From IMG/VR virus record IMGVR_UViG_2541047900_000007: DNA of 33,326 nucleotides. One strand, 5' to 3'. Below the pieces are notes generated by a model, which saw nothing but the letters and a program-made list of their open reading frames with translations, did not search any database and was not told where the DNA came from. Shown here piece after piece: positions 4,393-33,326 of this stretch. This stretch comes from a virus. Its lineage: Duplodnaviria > Heunggongvirae > Uroviricota > Caudoviricetes. The translations under genes were made by a program, and so were the position numbers. Positions within the stretch are counted from its first letter, which is position 1; each line of letters opens with the position of its first letter.

Positions 4393-5273
4393 ACACTCCT
4401 CGTCAGTATTCTGGCGGCCATTGCACTTAATCCCGGAGACATGCGGTTGAATGCTGTGCCGGCGGCGTTAAGCTGCCCGGAAACGGTATCCAGAGCACCT
4501 GCAATATTTCTTTTGTCCACACCACTCAGCGCAGACTGTGCCTGCTGTACATACGTGGCTGCTTCGCTGGCTGTTCTGGCCAGACTGATGGCATCGGGCA
4601 TGGATTCAGAGAGTGCGTTAAACGCCGGAACACTTTTCCCCAGAGCCCCGGAGATATTACCCAGTCCGCTCATCAGCCCCGGCACACGGGTCAGTGCGAC
4701 AACGGGGTTATCCTTCATTTTCTGTGTCACCCGAACGGCGCTGATAGTGGTCTGGAGTACAGACTGCGCCTGTTTCGCATAGTTGACGCCGTTGCGGATG
4801 AACTGCGCCACCCCTGAAGGTGAAGGAATGGCACCGGAGACCGCCCCGACACCCGGGAGCTTCGTGCGTATTGCCGGTGGTTGCAGAGGATTTTTCGGAT
4901 CACCGGTGTATTCCCGGAGAGACACGGTGGCACTGACAGCCAGCACGTTACCGGTGCTGTCTGTCTGCTCGCTGGTTGCGGTCACATCGGTAATCACGAA
5001 CCAGCCACGATAGTCACCGTTGCCGAAGACCAGCGCCAGTGCCTGATGGGCTTTCATGGCTGTTCGCAGTCTCGCCAGCTCCACATCGGGTACACAATAA
5101 TGCTGATGGAAAACCAGAGTTATCTGGATTTCGTCCAGCCTGTCGCCGACGAACTGCAGGCCAGGCTTACCCCCGATGCGGGCATGCTCCGCATAATCGA
5201 CGCCGAACGTGGCCTCGAAGCCGTCCCAGTAGGTAATCAGCTCAAACTCAATATCACCCAGTACGGCAAACAT
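4389..5273 (-). CDS. tail protein with gpU-like N-terminal domain (Mu N / DNA circulation protein family)
   Basis: 294-aa ORF immediately downstream of tape measure; N-terminal pattern IGGKPGLQFVGD...GWFVI resembles gpU/DNA-circulation N-domain. Confidence 0.5.
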   Translation of the reverse strand: MFAVLGDIEFELITYWDGFEATFGVDYAEHARIGGKPGLQFVGDRLDEIQITLVFHQHYCVPDVELARLRTAMKAHQALALVFGNGDYRGWFVITDVTATSEQTDSTGNVLAVSATVSLREYTGDPKNPLQPPAIRTKLPGVGAVSGAIPSPSGVAQFIRNGVNYAKQAQSVLQTTISAVRVTQKMKDNPVVALTRVPGLMSGLGNISGALGKSVPAFNALSESMPDAISLARTASEAATYVQQAQSALSGVDKRNIAGALDTVSGQLNAAGTAFNRMSPGLSAMAARILTRSV

Positions 5274-5899
5274 CAGCGGTACTCCTTACGTTGTTTCTGA
5301 GCCAGCAGACGCTCCAGCATTTTTTCCAGCTCATGCAGGCTCATATTCAGGGCGCCAGTCAGTCCGGCAGGCGCTGTGGTTTCCCTGCCATTGAGGAAAA
5401 ACTGAGGATTAAAGCTGACCTGGATACCACCAGACGTTCCACCGCCGGTTGCAGCTGCACCACGGCCTGAATATCCGGCAGCCAGGATTTCAGGCGAGGG
5501 GATACGGGGAACATCCGGTGTCATCTCATTTGCCAGACGTTGCCCTGGTAAAATCGATGCCCGGGTGGAGAGCGGAATAGCGGGCATGGAAGACAAACTA
5601 TTGATTACGGCTCCGATCGCATTTTTAGCAGACGACATAAACCCATTGATATCGGGCAACGGCATACTGAAGCGAACACCTGAAGTGTTATCCCGTATTT
5701 CTGGCCCCTGAATGCTCACGGGCATTTTGGGGAGCAGTTCACTGGCCATTCGCTGCCCGGCCAGAGCTGCAAGCGGAGTGGTCCGCTGCAGGCCAATGGC
5801 GGCCCCCTGCGCGATATTGTCACCAAAGCCCATAAACACGCGGCTCGGCGAATGAATGCCCAGCTTTTCGCTGAACCAGCCACTGATGCTGTCACCCAT
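5273..5899 (-). CDS. tape measure protein C-terminal fragment (frame stays open upstream to about 6148 but has no start codon before ATG 5899)
   Basis: Begins MGDSISGWF, the same peptide that ends each upstream tape-measure repeat unit; same frame as the ancestral tape measure after removing a 145-bp partial repeat. Confidence 0.5.
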   Translation of the reverse strand: MGDSISGWFSEKLGIHSPSRVFMGFGDNIAQGAAIGLQRTTPLAALAGQRMASELLPKMPVSIQGPEIRDNTSGVRFSMPLPDINGFMSSAKNAIGAVINSLSSMPAIPLSTRASILPGQRLANEMTPDVPRIPSPEILAAGYSGRGAAATGGGTSGGIQVSFNPQFFLNGRETTAPAGLTGALNMSLHELEKMLERLLAQKQRKEYR

Positions 5900-6555
5900 T
5901 CCGGTTACACTGGATTTGAGCGACTCCCATTTGTTTTTGATACCGTTAATCAGACCGTCGACAAGATGGCCACCGAAGTCGGTGAACTTTGCCGGCAGAT
6001 CAACACCAAGATATTTCAGCGCAGCTGCAAAGGCTTTATAGAGCAGACCTGCCGGCGACCAGTTAATCAGCAGCTTACCAGTTCCCGCGATACCGCCGTT
6101 AAAGGCTTCCTGAATGTCAGCCCAGCACTGTTTAAACCAGCTACTGATGGCCGAAATATTTCAGCGCAGCCGCAAAGGCTTTATAGAGCAGGCCTGCCGG
6201 CGACCAGTTAATCAGCAACTTACCAGTTCCCGCGATACCGCCGTTAAAGGCTTCCTGAATGTCAGCCCAGCACTGTTTAAACCAGCTACTGATGCTGTCA
6301 CCCATTCCGGTTACACTGGATTTGAGCGACCCCCATTTGTTTTTGATACCGTTAATCAGACCGTCGATAAGATGGCCACCGAAGTCGGTGAACTTTGCCG
6401 GCAGAGCAACGCCGAAATATTTCAGCGCAGCCGCAAAGGCTTTATAGAGCAGGCCTGCCGGCGACCAGTTAATCAGCAACTTACCAATTCCCACAATGCC
6501 GCCGTTAAAGGCTTCCTGAATGTCTGCCCAGCGCTGTTTAAACCAGCCACTGACT
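5873..6555. repeat. imperfect tandem repeat inside the tape measure gene: 261-bp units at 5889-6149 and 6295-6555 with a 145-bp partial unit at 6150-6294
   Basis: Direct alignment of plus-strand text; the same ~87-aa peptide (SWFKQ.WADIQEAFNGG...KYFG...GMGDSIS) recurs in the translation. Confidence 0.85.
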
Positions 6556-8369
6556 GCCCCCCAGTTGCGGTAGATAAGGTAAGCTGCTGCCGCGACAGCG
6601 GTGATAACGAGACCGATGGGATTCATCATCAGCGCACGTCCAATCCAGAGAACAGCACGTCCGGCGAGCATAATTCCGCGAACCAGCCCCCCGGAGAGCA
6701 CGCCACTCAGTGTTCTGGCTCCTTTGGCGACGGCGCTAAATCCGGTCACCAGCCAGCGGAGCTTACCGCCTTGCCCCAGTGCGAGCGACAGACGAAGCCA
6801 GTTGGCCCGAAGTAAAACAGCATTTTTCCAGACACTTACAAAGGGGGAAATAAGGAGATTCAGCCCCAGTTTGAGACCAACAGTCGCTATCTTAATCGCA
6901 AGGAGCGCACTGATGAGCTTAAAAGCCCCACTGACAAATTGCGGGTGAGTCGCTACCCAGTGTTTTGCCCCCTGAATGAGTGGAAGCAGTTCCTGAGTCA
7001 GAGAAATAAAAGATGGAGCTAATTGATCGCCCAGCGTAATTGCCAGATCACGACTGCTGACCATAAGTGCTTTAGTGGCTTCAAGGGGAGATTTCAGCCG
7101 CTGATCATAAGCACTGGCAAGCAAATCGTTATCCGCAGCCCTGAGAGCACCGGCACGGATCTCTCGATATCTGTCCATGTTGGCCAGCATCGGGCGGATA
7201 AATGCCATGACCTGCATATCCGCGAACATATCGCCCAGACCAAAGTTTTTCGCCAGAGCCTGAAGTGCCTCATCTCTTGCCGTATCATTCTTTATTTTCA
7301 TGGCTGATTTGAAGCCGGCCAGCGCTTCGGGGCTTTTGGCATTGAGGTAACGTTCTATAACACTCAACATCCCTTCAATCGGAGAGATCCCCGCAGCTTT
7401 ATAACTCGCAATAGATCCCTGCAAATCAATACCCAGATCAGCAAACTGTTTCTGAGTATCGCGGGCAAAAATTTTGGTAAGAAAGTTTTTAAAATTATTG
7501 GCTGCTTCGTCGGTGGAACCTGCACCGATTTTTGCTATCTGGAGACTGGCCCCGATTTCAGCAACAGCCTCTTTTCCACTGGCAATACCCGCCATCATTG
7601 GGGCCAGGGACTGCATCCACTTGACCTGATCCGGGATTTCAAATGACCCCTGGTCACCGGCATAAGCCATAATATTCTGAACGGCACCAAAATCTCTGGC
7701 CGCACCTTTCAGGGAGTTTTGCCAGACTGCGGCCACTTTTGCCCAGTCCTGAGCAGACGTGCGTGTTGCCGTTGCCGCGCGGGCAATATCCGGCATCAGA
7801 AAACCGATATCTGACACATTATCAATATTGTCGCTGATGAGTGAACCCACCGCCTCCTGCAGCTCATCCTGATACTGATTGTATTTAAGCGCCCAGCCTT
7901 TTATCTGTCCGGCAAGTGCATCCCGCGTTTTATTGTCATATTTTGCGGTGATCGACATATCAATCATTTTGTCCTGAAAAGACATGGACTGCTGAACGGC
8001 AGGGGAAACCGTATGATAAACAGTCTGTGCCATGCCATACGCTTCAATCCCCTGACCATACAGCGCCATGCGGTTAGCTTTCAGCGCATCACTGGTAGCG
8101 GATGCCGCTGACAGACGGCGCTGCTGGCGCTCAATTTGCTCCATGGTGCGGCTTACCCGCAGCAGCTCGCTGTTGAGATGCTGCATCCGGGAAGAACCCA
8201 GTTGACCATAACGTTCTGTTGCACGGGTTAAAGCGTTCTGACGTTCCTGCAGGCGGCGTGAGGTATCGCTCAGGGAATCAAGCGCACGGCGGGTACCGCT
8301 CATTGCAGAACGGAATGTGCTACCAATCATCCCGCCGATAACAACGCCGACTGAAAACTGTCCCGACAT
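6141..8369 (-). CDS. tail tape measure protein, N-terminal 742 aa (terminated by a frameshift at a repeat junction)
   Basis: Long ORF after the tail chaperone; GGAGGT ribosome-binding site before ATG 8369; coiled-coil and hydrophobic stretches typical of tape measure; ends HQ* exactly at the partial-repeat junction. Confidence 0.8.
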   Translation of the reverse strand: MSGQFSVGVVIGGMIGSTFRSAMSGTRRALDSLSDTSRRLQERQNALTRATERYGQLGSSRMQHLNSELLRVSRTMEQIERQQRRLSAASATSDALKANRMALYGQGIEAYGMAQTVYHTVSPAVQQSMSFQDKMIDMSITAKYDNKTRDALAGQIKGWALKYNQYQDELQEAVGSLISDNIDNVSDIGFLMPDIARAATATRTSAQDWAKVAAVWQNSLKGAARDFGAVQNIMAYAGDQGSFEIPDQVKWMQSLAPMMAGIASGKEAVAEIGASLQIAKIGAGSTDEAANNFKNFLTKIFARDTQKQFADLGIDLQGSIASYKAAGISPIEGMLSVIERYLNAKSPEALAGFKSAMKIKNDTARDEALQALAKNFGLGDMFADMQVMAFIRPMLANMDRYREIRAGALRAADNDLLASAYDQRLKSPLEATKALMVSSRDLAITLGDQLAPSFISLTQELLPLIQGAKHWVATHPQFVSGAFKLISALLAIKIATVGLKLGLNLLISPFVSVWKNAVLLRANWLRLSLALGQGGKLRWLVTGFSAVAKGARTLSGVLSGGLVRGIMLAGRAVLWIGRALMMNPIGLVITAVAAAAYLIYRNWGAVSGWFKQRWADIQEAFNGGIVGIGKLLINWSPAGLLYKAFAAALKYFGVALPAKFTDFGGHLIDGLINGIKNKWGSLKSSVTGMGDSISSWFKQCWADIQEAFNGGIAGTGKLLINWSPAGLLYKAFAAALKYFGHQ

Positions 8370-8959: not shown

Positions 8960-9241
8960 TCAGCAAGTGCGAAACCCCTTGCAGTTACGCAGGAAAGCGA
9001 TGAGAAGCGTCTTTCCCTCAGATTTGCCGATGCCGGAGAACCAGTGGTCGGGAGGCTCCCATGCTTCAATCAAATCCGCCAGTTTGCGGGCCTTTGAACG
9101 TGTGCAGTCAATCGGGTCATTGGTTTTACGGGTATTAAAAAGGGTTTCCACCCCCGGAATATCAAGGAGGGTAAACCACGTACCATTTGACATGCCCAGT
9201 GCCGCACATCGTCCTCCTTTATCCGTCAGTTCAACACTCAC
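8960..9241 (-). CDS. hypothetical protein between tube and chaperone genes
   Basis: 93-aa ORF starting 2 nt after the tube gene stop; followed by a hairpin at 8939-8952. Confidence 0.35.
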   Translation of the reverse strand: MSVELTDKGGRCAALGMSNGTWFTLLDIPGVETLFNTRKTNDPIDCTRSKARKLADLIEAWEPPDHWFSGIGKSEGKTLLIAFLRNCKGFRTC

Positions 9242-9243
9242 CG

Positions 9244-9765
9244 TCAGCCCCCGATATTGATACGGTAGTCAGTCAGTTGATCAACACCGCCGACCCGGAA
9301 GATGTTGGCCAGATAGTCCAGTTGCAGCAGCTCTTCACCATCCAGTACCTGTCTGATATACGTGCAGGTGAAGCTACTGGAGAACTCGGCGTTCTCGTGC
9401 TGTTTGAACGTCCCCAGCGGGTTCTTCTTGAACATAATCGTCAGGAAGGTGACCAGCGGGATTTCGTCAATCAGCCCCTGCGAGCTGTAGCGCTGGACGC
9501 TGGAACGACACTGCAGTGCCAGCGACCTGTACGGGTTCGCGGCAGACAGCATCGCATCGCGGTAAAAGCTGTTCCATTTGATTTCGCCTTCCAGTTTGTC
9601 AAAACCAGCCGGGAGTTCCACCTTACCCACCATCCCCAGCGCCTTGTGTTCCTGCATAATCATGGAGACATCGGGGAGTTTAACTTCCTCAGCCCGTCCC
9701 AGCAGGTTAGTACCATCCAGATAGATGTTGGCATTCGTGATGCGGTTTATCTCAATCTTTGACAT
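9244..9765 (-). CDS. tail tube protein (Mu M/gp40, P2 FII-like)
   Basis: 173-aa ORF immediately after the sheath gene. Confidence 0.8.
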   Translation of the reverse strand: MSKIEINRITNANIYLDGTNLLGRAEEVKLPDVSMIMQEHKALGMVGKVELPAGFDKLEGEIKWNSFYRDAMLSAANPYRSLALQCRSSVQRYSSQGLIDEIPLVTFLTIMFKKNPLGTFKQHENAEFSSSFTCTYIRQVLDGEELLQLDYLANIFRVGGVDQLTDYRINIGG

Positions 9766-22892: not shown

Positions 22893-23480
22893 CTAAAAAA
22901 AGAAGTGTATTATTGCCCAAACAGCTATAACGATGATTCCCAGCCCAAGAGCCGATTCTAACTTATCTTTGGCAGTCATTTTTACTGTTGTAGCGGGCGC
23001 AGGTAAGTCTTGCTGCTGTGGATTTTCTGTTAGTTGTTTACGAGAAGAAACATCGCCCCTGTTAGTTTGCTTCATGTTGATTACAGATGCGTTATGGGCA
23101 TTATCAGCAGCAATTGACTGAAGTTTTACAAAAGTTTTTGAATCTGTTTTAGCCAGAAGTAACCTATTTCCCGTAAACATTGCCTTAAAAGTGATAGTTT
23201 TTTTCGTCTTGTCCGCCGCACCAAGCAAACCTCCAATGACCAACCCTGCACCACCAAAGATTAATCCACCAAGCAAACCTGCGCCTGCCGCCTTACCTAT
23301 ACGGCTTTCCTCTTCACTATCCGCAAGTTCAATCGATAAAAGCTCTTCTTTCAGATTTAATACAATATTTTCAGGAAAGCCTTGTTTTGGTTTTTTGGCA
23401 AACACGATGGTACCGAACCCCATGCTTGCCCACCCTTTAGGAAAACTTCCTGCGATAACCTGAATCCCTGCCATGTTCAT
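22893..23480 (-). CDS. membrane protein with glycine-zipper segment and C-terminal anchor, function unknown
   Basis: GKAAGAGLLGGLIFGGAGLVIGGLLGAA glycine-zipper and C-terminal LGLGIIVIAVWAIIHFFF; ORF-track start is GTG 23483, ATG 23480 or 23474 more likely (AAGGTG upstream). Confidence 0.5.
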   Translation of the reverse strand: MNMAGIQVIAGSFPKGWASMGFGTIVFAKKPKQGFPENIVLNLKEELLSIELADSEEESRIGKAAGAGLLGGLIFGGAGLVIGGLLGAADKTKKTITFKAMFTGNRLLLAKTDSKTFVKLQSIAADNAHNASVINMKQTNRGDVSSRKQLTENPQQQDLPAPATTVKMTAKDKLESALGLGIIVIAVWAIIHFFF

Positions 23481-23564
23481 CACCTTTTACATTAAAATTT
23501 CAGAACGCAGCATGATGCCGCCTTTGTCTTTTTTCTGATCCCATGGTAATTCAGCTGTTATTTT

Positions 23565-24551
23565 CTATTTAAGAATAAAACGGTATTTACTGTCAGGAGT
23601 GCTTTGCTGATCAAGTAGCAGTGAACGACATGGAGCAGTCAAAACCCGAGCATAACTACCATCAGGGCTTATGTTAATGTAACAAACCTTGCCCTTAACA
23701 CTATAATTTTCGGGGACGGATGCCTTTGCTGATACAGTAAATTTAAGGGTATGCCAGCCCGTTTTTTGCTTGTAGCTTGAAACCGAATGGAAATCATCTG
23801 AGTACTTATTTAACCCTGGAAACATGCTGCGCAGTGCGGGGATGGAATCTTCTATTATTTTATCGTTGGTTTTAATGTTAAAAACGCTGGTTTCAGTAGA
23901 AGCTACTGCTTTGGCATTTCCCCATTTACCAGCGAACACAATCATTCCCACGAAAAATATTGCTACAAGAACTAACACTCCCCCCAACACTACTACATGA
24001 GGCTTCCGGCTTCTGGTTGGTACAGTTGCGACTGATTTTGCACCGCTTTCCGATGGAGGTGATAGAGTTTTACTCTCATCACGAATATTCAGCAGATCAT
24101 CAAAATAACCAAACACAGCCTGCAACTGCTCTTTGTCTAGGCCTTTAAGATGGGTTGTACCGAAATGCTTCAGACAGTATCTGTCACGGTCAAGACGATA
24201 CCCAGGGTCAGTAAGCGCCATTATTTTGCTGACCAGAAGATTACAGTCCTTCATATTCTGGATCTGTTGTGCATATCTCTGAAGGATCTCAACCGCACCA
24301 TGATAATCAGCCGCAGTCATTTCATTAACTGTTTTGGTATTAAGTTTCGTGTGGATCGTCATCCATAGCTCGCGCTTACTTTCCCCCAGATCAACCAATT
24401 CATCCATCAATCTGTGTAAATCGCGTTTTTGCAGCAACGAAATTGGTTGCTGGGCCGAAGGAAGTATGTCAGCAGAATAGTTATGAATGGTAACATCACC
24501 GCTGACAACGTTACCCACATCCCCGTTAACTGTTTGCTTCTCTTTACTCAT
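23565..24551 (-). CDS. bitopic membrane protein (cytoplasmic N-domain, one transmembrane helix, C-terminal domain with two Cys), function unknown
   Basis: 328-aa ORF; ATGA overlap with the repressor gene; central helix VVVLGGVLVLVAIFFVGMIVFAG. Confidence 0.55.
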   Translation of the reverse strand: MSKEKQTVNGDVGNVVSGDVTIHNYSADILPSAQQPISLLQKRDLHRLMDELVDLGESKRELWMTIHTKLNTKTVNEMTAADYHGAVEILQRYAQQIQNMKDCNLLVSKIMALTDPGYRLDRDRYCLKHFGTTHLKGLDKEQLQAVFGYFDDLLNIRDESKTLSPPSESGAKSVATVPTRSRKPHVVVLGGVLVLVAIFFVGMIVFAGKWGNAKAVASTETSVFNIKTNDKIIEDSIPALRSMFPGLNKYSDDFHSVSSYKQKTGWHTLKFTVSAKASVPENYSVKGKVCYINISPDGSYARVLTAPCRSLLLDQQSTPDSKYRFILK

Positions 24552-25009
24552 CTTCTCTTGGTATTTTTGTTCATTATTCCACCTGTTCCTATGGTTACGT
24601 TACCTTTGATAACATTCCCCAGAACATCTCCATGAATAACCTGTTCCGCCCGTTCTCTGGAGGAGCCAGTAGTCAAGGCCGACAAAACTGAACCTTTGAC
24701 CTGTAATGGTGCCTGCCGGTAGTGCTGCAGTAACTCCATTTCATCACGTGATAAAGTTATACCTGATGACTCCCCGGTAAGAATGAACTGTACATTGGCC
24801 CCAATTCTTGCAAAGGCTGCAAGTAACTCACCTCCGGGAACAGCAACCCCTCGTTCATATTTCCCCCACATTTCTCTTGAAACGCCACAAAGGGCTGCTA
24901 CTTCAGCCTGCTTGAGTGATAACCGCGAACGCTCAGCTTTGAACCGCGACGCGCAAAGAGAATCAAAATTCACATAAACCTCATTGACAATGAGAACAAT
25001 AGTTCTCAT
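24548..25009 (-). CDS. XRE-family helix-turn-helix repressor (candidate immunity repressor); true start probably internal (GTG near 24973)
   Basis: HTH pattern LKQAEVAALCGVSREMWGKYERG; divergent from Ner-like gene; ORF-track ATG 25009 sits inside the predicted early promoter -10. Confidence 0.65.
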   Translation of the reverse strand: MRTIVLIVNEVYVNFDSLCASRFKAERSRLSLKQAEVAALCGVSREMWGKYERGVAVPGGELLAAFARIGANVQFILTGESSGITLSRDEMELLQHYRQAPLQVKGSVLSALTTGSSRERAEQVIHGDVLGNVIKGNVTIGTGGIMNKNTKRR

Positions 25010-28317: not shown

Positions 28318-29484
28318 ATGCTGGTACTGAAGCAGCAACTGAAAGAGGCCCGTATTCCACAGGCGGTGGTGGCGAGAGCTGTCGATGTTTCTGAGGCCAC
28401 GCTGGCCCAGATTGTGAATCATAACGCGTGGCCCCGCACCAGCCCCGGAGAAGTGCGCCGGCGTCTTGCGTCCTGGCTGGAAAGTCAGGGGATTGATACA
28501 ACGAAGAGTTTTGATGCTGTACAGGGCGCGGCCACGCCCCGTACAGCGGGTACCACAGATAAAACGAGCCTCAGTGAGGAAGAGAATATGTTACTCAAAA
28601 AACAGGTGTTATTTCCAGCAACCAAAAAAGCGTTTGGTCTTTTCCGTGACCCGTTCGCCGACGAAGCCATGCAGGGTTCTGATGATGTGTTCACCACCCC
28701 GGACATTCGCTACGTGCGTGAGGCGTTGTACCAGACAGCCCGTCATGGTGGGTTTATGGCCGTCATCGGTGAGTCCGGTGCGGGTAAATCCACGCTGCGC
28801 CGCGACCTGACTGAACGTATCAACCGCGAGAATGCGCCGGTAATTGTTATCGAGCCATACATCATCGCTATGGAAGACAACGATGTGAAAGGGAAAACCC
28901 TGAAGGCAGCAGCGATTGCCGAAGCCATTATCAGTACCATCGCACCACTGGAAAGCATCAGACGCAGTCAGGACGCCCGCTTTCGCCAGTTGCATCGCGT
29001 CCTGAAAGACAGCAGCCAGGCGGGGTTCAGCCACGTTCTGGTGATTGAGGAGGCCCACAGTCTGCCCATTCCGACACTGAAACACCTCAAACGCTTTTTT
29101 GAGCTGGAGTCCGGTTTCAAAAAACTGCTGTCCATCGTGCTGATTGGCCAGCCGGAACTGGCGACAAAACTGTCTGAACGCAATATGGAAGTCCGTGAAG
29201 TCGTTCAGCGCTGTGAGGTGGTCGAACTTCTGCCTCTGGACAATAACCTTGAAGAATTTCTGACGTTCAAACTGCAACGGGCCGGTAAACAACTGACGGA
29301 CATTATGGACGCCAGCGCAGTGGATGCCATACGTGCCCGCCTGAGCAATCCGGGAAGTCATCGTAAAAATATGGTCAGCCTGCTGTATCCGCTGGCCGTC
29401 AGTAACCTGGTGATAGCCGCCATGAATCTGGCCGCTGAAATCGGGGTTCCACAGGTCAATGCTGACGTTGTCAAAGGGGTTTAA
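28318..29484 (+). CDS. DNA transposition AAA+ ATPase, MuB-like
   Basis: Walker A GESGAGKST and Walker B-like VLVIEEAH; N-terminal HTH; start at ATG 28318 after GGAGGG, 10 nt past the transposase stop. Confidence 0.75.
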   Translation: MLVLKQQLKEARIPQAVVARAVDVSEATLAQIVNHNAWPRTSPGEVRRRLASWLESQGIDTTKSFDAVQGAATPRTAGTTDKTSLSEEENMLLKKQVLFPATKKAFGLFRDPFADEAMQGSDDVFTTPDIRYVREALYQTARHGGFMAVIGESGAGKSTLRRDLTERINRENAPVIVIEPYIIAMEDNDVKGKTLKAAAIAEAIISTIAPLESIRRSQDARFRQLHRVLKDSSQAGFSHVLVIEEAHSLPIPTLKHLKRFFELESGFKKLLSIVLIGQPELATKLSERNMEVREVVQRCEVVELLPLDNNLEEFLTFKLQRAGKQLTDIMDASAVDAIRARLSNPGSHRKNMVSLLYPLAVSNLVIAAMNLAAEIGVPQVNADVVKGV

Positions 29485-29486
29485 TA

Positions 29487-29756
29487 ATGAAATCCACCAC
29501 AGTTATCAGCCAGCAGATTAACAAAGTGCAGTCAGCCATTATGGCACTTAAGGCGACGAATACGGATATACAGAGCATCACCATCAGGGGCCATAAACCT
29601 GTCATCCGAGTTTCCCGGAGTGCGCATTGCATACACATGCTTGAACAGGGGAAAGCCAGTTATCTGTATACCGGTCATGACCACAGGGGTCATTTCCGTC
29701 AGGGCGTTTTCGAACTGCACGGCTGTCGCGTCGTGTGGCCGGAATCTTTGTGGTAA
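29487..29756 (+). CDS. hypothetical early protein
   Basis: 89-aa ORF starting 2 nt after the B-like gene stop. Confidence 0.45.
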   Translation: MKSTTVISQQINKVQSAIMALKATNTDIQSITIRGHKPVIRVSRSAHCIHMLEQGKASYLYTGHDHRGHFRQGVFELHGCRVVWPESLW

Positions 29757-29783
29757 TCAGCACAACCGGAGAAATCATAAAAT

Positions 29784-30314
29784 ATGGCAAAAAGTACAAA
29801 AGGGGCAAAACGTATCAAGTCCGCAGCGGCACTCTGGGTACCGGGGACACGCGAAGAGGTCATTGAGGGCATCAGACTGCTCGGTGACGCACAACGTGAA
29901 CTGGTCAGGGCTGAAACAGAAATGAATGACGCCATTGGCGATATCACCGCACGTTATGCCCCGCTCACCGAGAGCCTGAAAAAACGCATGGCCGAACTGC
30001 AGTCCGGTATTCAGACATGGTGTGAGGCACACCGTGATGAACTGACCGGCAACGGGAAGGTGAAGTTCGCTAACCTCACCACCGGCGAGGTGCAGTGGCG
30101 AAACCGTCCGCCATCAGTCAGTATCCGTGGGGCGGATAATGTTATTGAATTACTGAGACGTCTGGGGCTTGAGCGCTTTATTCGTGTAAAAGAGGAAATA
30201 AATAAAGACGCTATCCTGAATGAAAAAGAGGCCGTGAAAAATATTCCCGGTATTTCCATTAAAAGCGACATTGAGGATTTTTCAATAATTCCTTTTGAGC
30301 AGGATGTGCAGTAA
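29784..30314 (+). CDS. gam: host-nuclease inhibitor Gam (Mu Gam family)
   Basis: 176-aa ORF, GGAGAA ribosome-binding site; sequence pattern and position after A/B match Mu Gam. Confidence 0.8.
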   Translation: MAKSTKGAKRIKSAAALWVPGTREEVIEGIRLLGDAQRELVRAETEMNDAIGDITARYAPLTESLKKRMAELQSGIQTWCEAHRDELTGNGKVKFANLTTGEVQWRNRPPSVSIRGADNVIELLRRLGLERFIRVKEEINKDAILNEKEAVKNIPGISIKSDIEDFSIIPFEQDVQ

Positions 30315-30411
30315 ACACACCACGTTAATTATTTAATAAAAACATTTTCTTTTTTATTCCAGCGTCAGCGCCGTGGGCTTCTGCACGCCGGAAACAGAGG
30401 AGAATTAAATT

Positions 30412-30606
30412 ATGATATTTAAATGTATTCAGTGCGAGAGGGATATAACAGCCCTGCGTTTTCACAGCGCCATCGCCGTGATGTCCGGTAAATACCACAT
30501 CCCTGCGGTACGCGTCACCCTGGTCTGCCCGTACTGCAGCCAGCATTTTTCGGCGGACGTGCCCGTCATGGAATTCTCCCGCCCTGACAGGGAGGACGCG
30601 CAATGA
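30412..30606 (+). CDS. small zinc-ribbon protein (CxxC...CxxC)
   Basis: 64-aa ORF with CIQC and CPYC pairs; GAGGAG ribosome-binding site. Confidence 0.45.
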   Translation: MIFKCIQCERDITALRFHSAIAVMSGKYHIPAVRVTLVCPYCSQHFSADVPVMEFSRPDREDAQ

Positions 30607-30875
30607 TTACCCCACAGGAAGCACGACAGCGCACCCGAACCCTTGTTGAACACTATGTCAACGAGTGTGAATGCCGCAACCTCACCGATGTGAAGCACGT
30701 CCTGACGGCACTAATCAGTATGGCCGCTCAGGCCATTGTGGCGACCAACGGAAAGGCGGCTGCCCTGCAGGTACTGGTGAACACACTCACCCACACGGCA
30801 GAGCATGAGGTGCCGTACCGGATGGAAACCACTGCAGAAGGCGGCCTGCACATCACCGTCAGCCGGAAGCACTGA
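30603..30875 (+). CDS. hypothetical early protein
   Basis: 90-aa ORF, ATGA overlap with upstream ORF. Confidence 0.45.
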   Translation: MITPQEARQRTRTLVEHYVNECECRNLTDVKHVLTALISMAAQAIVATNGKAAALQVLVNTLTHTAEHEVPYRMETTAEGGLHITVSRKH

Positions 30876-30884
30876 GGGCGCGGC

Positions 30885-31181
30885 ATGACACGGAACACCA
30901 TACTCACCCGCACCGCCCTCTACCGTCTGGCCCTGCAGCGTTTCGGGCCGGACGCACAGGCCCTGAAACTGACAGAAGAGGCCGCTGAACTGGCGGCCAG
31001 TGCTGCCCGCAATCTGAACGGACAGGGCAGCGAAAGTGACCTCGCGGCAGAGCTGGCAGACGTGGAAATCATGACAGAGCAATTGCGCCTTCAGGGGATG
31101 GACCGGCTGATTGACTTCCACAAACAGAAAAAACTGGAACGTCTGGCTGCACGACTGGGCGTGATTTACACGAACGAGTAA
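30885..31181 (+). CDS. MazG-like nucleotide pyrophosphohydrolase domain protein (tentative)
   Basis: 98-aa ORF with EEAAELAASAAR and ELADVEIMTEQL helices resembling the MazG-type EExxE / ExxD motif pair. Confidence 0.4.
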   Translation: MTRNTILTRTALYRLALQRFGPDAQALKLTEEAAELAASAARNLNGQGSESDLAAELADVEIMTEQLRLQGMDRLIDFHKQKKLERLAARLGVIYTNE

Positions 31182-31195
31182 CCGGGAGGCATTCA

Positions 31196-31411
31196 ATGGC
31201 TGACATACTCAGGGAAATCACCGCATGGACACTGATTCTTACTGGCCTGGCGACATGCCTCAGTGCGGGGGCAGCCCTGGCTGCCCTGCTGATGCACATA
31301 ACAACACAGTGGTTATGGGAAAAGCTTAAAGCAGCATACAGCCTGAAAGAGCTGTCCGACGCTGTCCGGGCATGGAAACGGCAGAAAAATACCGGAGATA
31401 CAGAACAATGA
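31196..31411 (+). CDS. small membrane protein
   Basis: 71-aa ORF with one hydrophobic helix (WTLILTGLATCLSAGAALAALL). Confidence 0.4.
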   Translation: MADILREITAWTLILTGLATCLSAGAALAALLMHITTQWLWEKLKAAYSLKELSDAVRAWKRQKNTGDTEQ

Positions 31412-32091
31412 CAGACCAGAATAAACACATTGAGAAACTGAAAAAGTTGCTGGCGCTGGCCGCATCCGGCAACCCGCACGAGGCCGCTCTGGCACTGCGC
31501 CGAGCCCGTAAACTGATGGATGTTCACGGCATCACACATTCCGACATTGCTATGAGTGATATTGATGAAACCATCAGTCATTACTGGCCGACAGGCAGTC
31601 TCCGTCCACCGCGCTACATGCTGGGCCTGATGAACATCATCCGCGAGGCATTTGGTGTTAACTCCATCATTCACCCCGGCACGCATCCGTCTGTGGGGTT
31701 CTACGGTAACCGGGAACGAGCGGCACTGGCTGCATACACCTGGGAAGTGCTGGTCCGCCAACTGAAAAAGGCGCGTCAGCAGTATATCAGCGCACAGAAC
31801 AAAAGAATAAAAAACGCCACCCGTACCAGCCGTGGAAACCAGTTTGCTGAAGGCTGGGTACTGGCCGTTATCAGTGAAATACAGTCCTTTGCCCTGACCG
31901 ATGATGAGCGTGAACTGATGCAACAGTGGCTGGAACATAAATACCCGCAAACGCAAACCACCAGGGCGCGTAAACCGGGAAGAAGCCGCAATGGCGACGC
32001 CTCGCGCTATGCGGGGTTTCGTGAAGGGCAGAACGTCAGACTGCACCGCCCGGTCAGTGGGCAGGAACAACAGAAACTGGAGGCCAGATGA
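31408..32091 (+). CDS. conserved prophage early protein (DUF2786-like N-terminus)
   Basis: Start set to ATG 31408 (MTDQNKHIEKLKKLLALA...), overlapping the upstream stop as ATGA, GGAGA upstream. Confidence 0.5.
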   Translation: MTDQNKHIEKLKKLLALAASGNPHEAALALRRARKLMDVHGITHSDIAMSDIDETISHYWPTGSLRPPRYMLGLMNIIREAFGVNSIIHPGTHPSVGFYGNRERAALAAYTWEVLVRQLKKARQQYISAQNKRIKNATRTSRGNQFAEGWVLAVISEIQSFALTDDERELMQQWLEHKYPQTQTTRARKPGRSRNGDASRYAGFREGQNVRLHRPVSGQEQQKLEAR

Positions 32092-32318
32092 TTACGCTAT
32101 CAGGTAACAGCCGGAAATTAAAAGCCTGCCGAATATCTGCCAGATACCTTTTTGCCCGCGCCTTTTTTAAGAACGTCAGGCCGGGGATCACAATTGGTGT
32201 TATTGCCGGACGCGAACAGGTTGAAAAATACATGTCAGGTGCATGGTGGAATAACGACCCTGTCATTGCTGCCCGTAATATTCATATCGAATGGGGAGGT
32301 ATTCAGAATGACTACTGA
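32088..32318 (+). CDS. hypothetical protein
   Basis: 76-aa ORF, ATGA overlap with upstream gene. Confidence 0.35.
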   Translation: MITLSGNSRKLKACRISARYLFARAFFKNVRPGITIGVIAGREQVEKYMSGAWWNNDPVIAARNIHIEWGGIQNDY

Positions 32319-32514
32319 AACCATTGTCTGTTTTCTTTTCTGGTATATGTACGCAGGATCATGCAGCGCAAGACTTCATCGTTCCCTGGGCTATGGCAGG
32401 CACTACGACACCGCGCATTACATCCTGTACATGACCGCCGTCATGTTGTTCTGGCCAGTCACCCTGCCAGCTGCAACCGACATTGTTGCCGACAGACTGA
32501 AAAAAAGGAGATGA
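32308..32514 (+). CDS. small membrane protein
   Basis: Start set to ATG 32308 (MTTETIVCFLFWYMYAG...), GGGGAGG upstream; two hydrophobic segments. Confidence 0.4.
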   Translation: MTTETIVCFLFWYMYAGSCSARLHRSLGYGRHYDTAHYILYMTAVMLFWPVTLPAATDIVADRLKKRR

Positions 32515-32515
32515 T

Positions 32516-32965
32516 ATGCAGAAAAAACGCCTGATACAGCTTATCCATATTGCCCGTAATGAACTGGGTATGGATGAAGACACCTACCGCCAGATGTTAC
32601 AGGGGCTGACCGGTAAAGCCTCAACCAAAGGAATGGATACCACACAACTAAACTGCGTGCTGGAATCCATGAAAAAGAAAGGCTTTCGCGTTAAACCAGC
32701 CAGAAAAGCCAGCTCCGGTTTACCGCTGGATAACCATCCGCAGTCCAGGAAAATTCGTGCGCTATGGCTTGAAATGGCTGCTGCCGGCATTGTTCGTGAC
32801 CGTTCAGAAAATGCATTAGCGAGGTGGATCAAGCGGGAAACGGGCATCAGCGCCCTGCGCTGGCTCAGTACTGAACAGGCAAGCAGTGTTATTGAGAAAC
32901 TGAAGAAGTGGCAGCGCAGAGCTGCGGGAGTCAAACATGAGCGACCTGAATCAGTTTCGAAGTAA
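32516..32965 (+). CDS. gemA: GemA-like protein (Mu gp16 family)
   Basis: 149-aa ORF immediately upstream of the Mor-like gene, as in Mu. Confidence 0.65.
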   Translation: MQKKRLIQLIHIARNELGMDEDTYRQMLQGLTGKASTKGMDTTQLNCVLESMKKKGFRVKPARKASSGLPLDNHPQSRKIRALWLEMAAAGIVRDRSENALARWIKRETGISALRWLSTEQASSVIEKLKKWQRRAAGVKHERPESVSK

Positions 32966-33326
32966 GGGGCCGGAACTCCTGGTGGAACTGGCACAGCATA
33001 CCTCTGAGACCGTTCGCGAGATTATTGATATTGAGCCCGAAGTTGCCGACCAGATTGGTCAGGCCGTCGCGAACCGAATGATGCAGGTCTGGGGCGGGCA
33101 AAACGTTTATTTCCCGATGGGCATGGTATGGAAGGTCAGTCAGCGCGACCGGGAAATCTTCAGGGAGTTTAACGGACGCAACCACCACGAACTGGCCCGC
33201 AAATTTGGTGTTTCGCTTCAGTGGGTCTACAGCGTGGTTAAGCGGGTAAGAAAAGAAGAACTGGATCGGATGCAGGGCAAGCTATTTGCTGATGAACCCG
33301 ATGCAGATACGGAGAAAAAAGAGTAA
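32937..33326 (+). CDS. mor: Mor-like middle-operon transcription activator (Mor/C family)
   Basis: 129-aa ORF with WGGQNVYFP and FNGRNHHELARKFGVSLQWVY motifs characteristic of the Mor/C family; stop is the last codon of the window. Confidence 0.7.
   Translation: MSDLNQFRSKGPELLVELAQHTSETVREIIDIEPEVADQIGQAVANRMMQVWGGQNVYFPMGMVWKVSQRDREIFREFNGRNHHELARKFGVSLQWVYSVVKRVRKEELDRMQGKLFADEPDADTEKKE

Follow-up and report, generated by a model that had tools for sequence, protein, structure and literature searches.

The DNA analysed here is a 33,326-nucleotide (nt) stretch recorded as IMGVR_UViG_2541047900_000007 (the window), which carries near its right end a block of nine small plus-strand genes, g1 to g9. 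The bounds of the block, 29487–32514, coincide with the first letter of g1 and the stop of g9, and the same nine genes are called by RefSeq in identical DNA. Its upstream boundary is transposition protein B (28318–29484, + strand), an AAA+ protein of ExeA/MuB-like type that RefSeq names ‘ExeA family protein’ in identical DNA and whose relatives match Pfam AAA_22. The downstream boundary is GemA (Mu gp16 family; 32516–32965, + strand; PF06252 at 8e-41), and a Mor-family middle/late transcription activator follows (32937–33326, + strand), annotated as such by RefSeq in identical DNA and matching PF08765 in relatives. The block is 97.8% identical to Escherichia phage PhiKM (Bcepmuvirus), and the RefSeq order in identical DNA reads repressor-like helix-turn-helix (HTH) protein, two small DNA-binding proteins, DUF3102, transposase A, B (ExeA/AAA), nine small genes, GemA (gp16 family) and Mor, after which the host ula operon begins. 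Judged from this identity and gene order, the block is the entire B-to-GemA interval at the right end of a BcepMu-like transposable prophage. Among 5426 complete E. coli genomes, 631 carry it at 95–100% identity; many of these come from human isolates, sequence type 131 (ST131) among them, and at least 80% of its length is covered in 619 of the 631, mostly at 95–99% identity.

Each of the nine genes has a PHROG family match (E <= 1e-34), and they are therefore real genes and not chance open reading frames (ORFs). Counting overlaps as negative, the junctions measure +2 nt (B–g1), +27 (g1–g2), +97 (g2–g3), −4 (g3–g4), +9 (g4–g5), +14 (g5–g6), −4 (g6–g7), −4 (g7–g8), −11 (g8–g9) and +1 (g9–GemA). 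A sequence-only reading of this DNA had described most of the ORFs as linked by start/stop overlaps; the packing is indeed that of a tight operon, although ‘most’ mildly overstates it, true overlaps being present at four of the eight internal junctions and the remaining ones spanning no more than 27 nt except one. That exception, the only sizeable spacer in the block, is the AT-rich 97-nt gap between g2 and g3 (30315–30411), which contains no promoter, terminator or Rfam match and whose length is not kept in relatives. GGAG-type ribosome-binding sequences precede nearly all of the block starts, promoter-like and terminator-like sites within the block are no more frequent than in shuffled sequence, and an Rfam search of the block matched no family. 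Because the genes are co-oriented, overlap by 4–11 nt or are separated by gaps of at most 27 nt, carry Shine-Dalgarno-like sequences and have no internal promoter or terminator above chance, the nine would probably be transcribed with A and B from the early promoter as a single tightly coupled operon.

Some alternative gene calls were rejected. An antisense ORF of 333 amino acids (aa) on the − strand (31069–32070), which spans all of g7, is attributed to chance because its frame is closed in homologues, where the longest open run is 41–116 codons, and because it has no Pfam match. Longer starts for g7 (31372) and g9 (32152) were set aside in favour of 31408 and 32308, respectively, on the basis of homologue alignments, PHROG coverage and Shine-Dalgarno sequences.

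The product of g2 (29784–30314, + strand; 176 aa) is a Mu Gam-family, Ku-like DNA-end-binding ‘host-nuclease inhibitor’, and by profile, identity and position it is certainly a Gam-family member. It matches PF07352 at 9.9e-41 and 139.6 bits (cut-off 28.3) over profile positions 1–148 of 149, phrog_491 at 3e-73 and PDB 2p2u, a putative Gam, at 8e-8, and it is 62–67% identical to Gam of Mu-like E. coli, Yersinia and Pseudomonas phages. It also sits where a Gam-family gene is expected in a transposable phage, in the early region after B and before gemA. Mu Gam binds and shields DNA ends like Ku, and does not inhibit RecBCD directly as lambda Gam does. The earlier description of g2 as belonging to a known RecBCD inhibitor family is thus right about the Gam family but not about direct RecBCD inhibition, the protective role being Ku-like end binding. 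As shown for the family, Gam of this prophage would bind the ends of infecting linear DNA, shielding them from RecBCD and other exonucleases. The gam gene of Mu has been described as a Ku orthologue that binds DNA ends (PMC3820752). The block resembles Mu in having, in the same slot, a gene that matches the Gam profile over its full length; the difference is that sister prophages, in which A and B are 94% identical, hold a DUF3164 protein in this slot (PF11363, 203 aa; 4843–5454 of locus L003). Comparison of Gam with DUF3164 detected no sequence similarity, and a literature search found no functional work on DUF3164, which could be a non-homologous functional replacement of Gam.

The g5 gene (30885–31181, + strand; 98 aa) encodes a candidate MazG-like all-alpha nucleoside triphosphate (NTP) pyrophosphohydrolase. 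It matches phrog_2245, ‘nucleoside triphosphate pyrophosphohydrolase’ (the name that RefSeq also gives it), at 2.8e-34, as well as phrog_4856 and phrog_1992, and it carries an EExxE-x20-ExxD metal-binding motif (E31, E32, E35, E56 and D59) that is fully or almost fully conserved across 21 close and 82 distant relatives; among the latter, E31 and D59 are invariant and E32, E35 and E56 at least 90% conserved. This motif aligns with the same motif in E. coli MazG and PDB 5ie9. A profile search of 1.84 billion representatives retrieved 10,415 relatives at E <= 1e-3, mostly of 90–110 aa, and g5 relatives in sequenced phages amount to five records only. In the sample of 82 relatives, 24 match Pfam MazG (PF03819; best 2e-5), four match MazG-like and two PRA-PH, and the broadened g5 profile reaches the MazG-type structures 5ie9, 2q73, 2q5z, 2gta and 1vmg at E values of 0.009–0.33 with the motifs aligned. 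PRA-PH is also matched by 16 of the 21 close homologues, all at E 4e-4 or weaker and none shown to reach the cut-off. A profile built from these close homologues matched no solved structure, and hhalign of g5 against E. coli MazG lined up the motifs with a score that was not significant. The AlphaFold2 monomer model is all-helical (predicted local distance difference test score of 90.6; two of five models confident) and contains one unbroken 42-residue helix, which may be an artefact of modelling a monomer, the MazG family being an oligomeric bundle. Its top Foldseek matches are weak (template modelling scores of 0.4–0.5) and are enriched for PRA-PH, DCTPP1, MazG and YpjD. The motif, the length of about 100 aa, the all-helical model and the profile links through intermediates to solved MazG-type proteins and Pfam MazG make g5 a probable member of the MazG/all-alpha NTP pyrophosphohydrolase superfamily. 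As such, the tentative MazG-like label given to it earlier gains from the motif, the PHROG match, the transitive Pfam link and the weak PDB matches, but it is held back by scores below the Pfam MazG and PRA-PH gathering thresholds and by the lack of a significant fold match. Through the EExxE...ExxD metal site, g5 would hydrolyse a nucleoside triphosphate or an alarmone/signal nucleotide, a chemistry suggested by the motif. Together with most of its sampled relatives, which likewise lie below the Pfam MazG and PRA-PH thresholds, g5 belongs to what appears to be a large MazG-like clade poorly covered by curated models.

The sequence-only reading had left g7 (31408–32091, + strand; 227 aa; isoelectric point (pI) 10.2) unrecognised, together with g1. 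The g7 protein scores above the gathering thresholds of both DUF2786 (42.9 versus 23.9 bits) and DUF7168 (92.6 versus 25.5 bits), belongs to phrog_421, and has a predicted fold that matches many phage DUF2786/DUF7168 members, a fold family also present in virulent phages. A gene of this type is kept just upstream of GemA in all six transposable-phage lineages compared (Salmonella, Xenorhabdus, Shewanella, Pseudomonas), and the order ‘Gam or DUF3164 ... DUF2786/7168 – small gene – GemA – Mor’ is common to Salmonella, Xenorhabdus, Shewanella and Pseudomonas JBD24. The family is a conserved early gene of transposable phages, found in many other phages as well, and because its place is kept across distant transposable phages, g7 looks like a backbone function rather than strain-specific anti-defence cargo. 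Unrelated ORFs replace it in 6 of 13 Salmonella-type blocks. DUF7168 resembles KH domains modestly and without the GXXG loop, a lead only, and no functional work on DUF2786 or DUF7168 was found in the literature.

Four further genes encode small proteins of other kinds. Directly behind B lies g1 (29487–29756, + strand), a basic 89-aa protein (pI 9.9) that RefSeq assigns to the ‘HI_1482 family’ and that matches phrog_2041 at 8e-34. All four BcepMu-type lineages compared have it between B and the Gam/DUF3164 slot, and in three of them (the E. coli, Salmonella and Xenorhabdus types) it immediately follows B. Its homologues in Salmonella and Xenorhabdus prophages are 28–67% identical, with C48 invariant and C80 nearly so. 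Searches of Pfam, NCBIfam and PDB returned no match to g1, and no functional work on HI1482 was found in the literature. The CxxC...CxxC zinc-ribbon protein noticed earlier is g3 (30412–30606, + strand; 64 aa; phrog_3401 at 1e-40), whose four cysteines (CIQC...CPYC; CxxC...CPxC) bear out that description. C6, C9, C39 and C42 do not vary even among homologues of as little as 25% identity, and against the curated zinc-ribbon families of Pfam and NCBIfam g3 gives sub-threshold scores only (for example, 19.2 versus 26.4 bits for Sgf11). The 90-aa product of g4 (30603–30875, + strand; phrog_3691 at 4e-55) is a lineage-restricted cassette without an informative family match; its alleles are 77–100% identical, including one intragenic recombinant, and it is absent from most Salmonella-type blocks and from the Xenorhabdus type. 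Finally, g8 (32088–32318, + strand; phrog_3681) encodes a basic 76-aa protein without Pfam or PDB match that is 67–80% identical in Salmonella-type and other viral contigs. Its 30 invariant positions, kept down to 60% identity, cluster in a core of the form YLFxRAFFKNVRPGI..AGR..V..YM.G.W..N.P, an unusually strong conservation for a 76-aa accessory protein. Another ORF takes its place at loci L020 and L040, and in one IMG/VR prophage it is interrupted by an IS3-family insertion sequence (IS) with two transposase ORFs on the − strand (6490–7840 of locus L017, also seen at L099); g8 is therefore not needed for prophage maintenance. The proteins g1, g7 and g8 are all strongly basic (pI 9.9–10.2), and single-sequence and profile searches of solved structures with the three found nothing meaningful.

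Two hydrophobic proteins complete the block. The 71-aa product of g6 (31196–31411, + strand; phrog_3958) is a predicted single-pass membrane protein with one clear hydrophobic span at residues ~12–36 (Kyte-Doolittle 1.98), and it behaves as a cassette, being present, absent or represented by a 67–70% identical allele in E. coli prophages. From the RefSeq start, g9 (32308–32514, + strand; 68 aa) has two hydrophobic, aromatic-rich segments and matches phrog_6436 at 1e-44 (residues 53–120 of the longer ORF); it comes in two allele classes that are ~40% identical to each other. Its best 19-residue Kyte-Doolittle window reaches a borderline 1.52, and it is probably a membrane hairpin. Of the two small membrane proteins proposed earlier, g6 is thus well founded and g9 a borderline case. 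The wider account of the gene content holds, with Gam, a four-cysteine zinc ribbon, a MazG-like protein, small hydrophobic proteins and unrecognised ORFs all present.

The block differs from its surroundings in how it varies among relatives. Salmonella-type relatives retain A and B at 94% and Mor at 95% identity to the window, and in the same elements g1 stands at 67%, g3 at 55%, g5 at 71%, g7 at 65% and g9 at 39–45%, with DUF3164 in place of Gam and with g4 and g6 absent. More generally, prophages in which A, B and Mor are 94–100% identical have block genes that are replaced, lost or 40–70% diverged, so the block is truly accessory, as had been supposed. The 29 distinct E. coli-type blocks, with B at least 98% identical throughout, fall into 11 architectures: six lack g6 and three have it as a 67–70% allele, g8 gives way to another ORF in two and is IS-interrupted in one, and some blocks have an extra 127-aa ORF inserted. 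The alternative cassettes of relatives that were checked include none with an assigned function. This mosaic pattern shows a dispensable block open to exchange, which is what one would expect of genes dealing with the host; it is compatible with counter-defence, and just as much with a part in host takeover, in superinfection exclusion or in accessory functions on nucleic acids. The constant position of g7 among distant lineages, and that of g1 among BcepMu-type lineages, argues that part of the block is backbone. A backbone layer, recurrent in several or all relatives from other genera, would comprise g1, the Gam or DUF3164 slot, the four-cysteine zinc ribbon, the MazG-like enzyme, the DUF2786/DUF7168 protein, g8 and the hydrophobic protein g9; of these, g7 and the Gam/DUF3164 slot alone reach as far as Pseudomonas and Shewanella. 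The second layer would consist of the lineage-specific cassettes g4 and g6, plus the alternative ORFs of relatives.

The overall arrangement is similar to that of the semi-essential (SE) early region of Mu (kil, gam ... gemA), with which the block shares the position between B and gemA/mor, the early-operon packing, a Gam homologue and many small uncharacterised genes. One difference is that the present prophage is a myovirus of BcepMu type, with its late genes on the opposite strand; another is that for g5 and g7, the two genes tested against a phage collection, no homologue was detected among Mu-type E. coli phages. What the genes of the Mu region do has itself been described as largely unknown (PMC3820752). 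Similarly, Pseudomonas phages of the Casadabanvirus group (JBD24, DMS3, D3112) follow the same order of B, small genes, Gam, small genes, DUF2786/7168 (gp17), a small gene, GemA and a Mor-like gene, whereas their virion type and host are different, their small genes unrelated and their g7 counterpart only 36% identical.

We consider it likely that the block is the semi-essential early region of a BcepMu-like E. coli prophage and a typical accessory host-interaction module, in which counter-defence may be one of several tasks and can at present be assigned to Gam only. Apart from Gam and the MazG-like g5, the small and mostly basic or membrane proteins of the block would act on host processes or on phage DNA/RNA transactions in early lytic growth. 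Several points weigh against this picture. Seven of the nine genes have no informative or functional homologue in Pfam, PHROGs, NCBIfam or PDB searches, and ‘host-interaction’ is therefore a class label and not a mechanism; the expression of the block as one operon is something we infer from gene layout; g5 lies below the Pfam and NCBIfam cut-offs (best PRA-PH 14.5 versus 21.3 bits; NCBIfam hisI 14.3 versus 42.7), and a Foldseek search of its model against PDB gave nothing at E <= 1e-3. In addition, g4, g7 or g8 served as bait in retrieving the mosaic loci, which biases the presence frequencies of these three genes upward.

A more specific reading takes the block as a counter-defence island in which several of g3, g4, g5, g6, g8 and g9 are dedicated immune inhibitors, with the small proteins blocking effectors and g5 destroying a signalling nucleotide or (p)ppGpp. 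Such a role would fit the cassette mosaicism and fast divergence within a 94–100% conserved phage backbone, as arms-race genes show, the early operon shared with Gam, and ORF sizes typical of known inhibitors. It also has a precedent in Atd1 of Pectobacterium phage PcCB7V, a MazG-like enzyme reported to be anti-TIR, depleting (p)ppGpp and relieving TIR-STING toxicity (10.1101/2022.06.09.495361), although the likeness of g5 to Atd1 is one of class description only. The mosaicism, however, would be no less expected of genes for superinfection exclusion or host physiology, or of genes under relaxed constraint, and the block is well conserved within E. coli, as the coverage and identity across 619 of the 631 genomes indicate. 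Apart from Gam, no block gene matches a characterised anti-defence protein in Pfam, PHROGs, NCBIfam or PDB, or any model in PADLOC, which holds defence models, none of these being an anti-defence library; NCBIfam and PADLOC gave no match for any block gene. The supposition that the semi-essential region is the usual site of anti-defence genes is partly true, gam being there, but other known anti-defence genes of the Mu family lie outside the early region: Mu has mom at its right end, and Pseudomonas Mu-like phages have their anti-CRISPRs in the head-gene region. Counter-defence is thus established by family for Gam only, with no such evidence so far for the other block genes, and an island of dedicated inhibitors seems to us rather unlikely.

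We give somewhat more room, still as a doubtful proposal, to the idea that g1, g3, g7 and g8 are backbone factors without an anti-defence role, accessory to transposition-replication, DNA/RNA handling or early-to-middle regulation in the manner of GemA and Mor. The place of g7, one gene upstream of GemA in phages that range from Pseudomonas siphoviruses to E. coli myoviruses, and the occurrence of its fold family in virulent phages argue for it, as do the basic character of g1, g7 and g8 and the constant position of g1 in the BcepMu-type lineages. Against it, g7 is replaced in some Salmonella-type blocks and g8 is lost or IS-disrupted in some prophages, so neither is essential; the KH resemblance is modest; and the searches found no homology to known replication or regulatory proteins. 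The latter result also bears on the sequence-only reading, which would have been undercut by homology of these genes to ordinary replication or regulatory factors: none was found, and neither was positive anti-defence evidence beyond Gam, for which that reading holds by family, the MazG-like protein contributing the Atd1 precedent alone. Least probable of the three, in our judgement, is that g6, g9 and perhaps g1 serve host takeover or superinfection exclusion with the host envelope, surface structures or cell division as their targets, much as Mu Kil or the pilus-blocking early accessory proteins of Pseudomonas Mu-like phages act. Precedents for early accessory genes aimed at host physiology are Mu kil, D3112 Tip and DMS3 Aqs1, and the transmembrane span of g6 and the two hydrophobic segments of g9 would suit such targets, these two being the most variable members of the block (present or absent in one case, alleles only 40% identical in the other). 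Even so, no block protein matched the Pfam Kil model PF26843 at E <= 0.1, though the same model detects a Shewanella Mu-like gene, and the proposal is drawn from sequence features, with the hydrophobicity of g9 borderline.

Other observations concern DNA outside the block. The window has a single low-GC stretch (GC 0.41–0.45 versus 0.52–0.60), which holds two − strand ORFs of 196 and 328 aa (22893–24551); the second of them shares 4 nt with the repressor-like HTH gene (24548–25009), at the stop of the latter. Neither ORF has a Pfam or PADLOC match, and PhiKM has a DNA adenine methylase at the equivalent place. This pair looks like a repressor-linked moron expressed in the lysogen, which a priori would be a better place than the early block for defence or exclusion cargo. 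Just outside the Xenorhabdus relative of the prophage, a gene with Pfam Tad2-like and DUF7823 matches lies at 8999–9751 of locus L007.

For a kind of phage region that is already well known, the finding supplies further annotation detail, and as it stands it reveals no new mechanism. It is conceivable, if rather improbable, that at least one uncharacterised gene of the block is a new anti-defence factor of a prophage present in ~12% of sequenced E. coli, including ST131; the best candidates would be g5, which may destroy an immune or alarmone nucleotide, and the swappable g4, g6 or g9, and replacement of Gam by the non-homologous DUF3164 would be the second possibility. The prophage is common in clinical E. 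coli, and the division of its early genes into backbone and cassettes provides a short, testable set for anti-defence or host-takeover screens.

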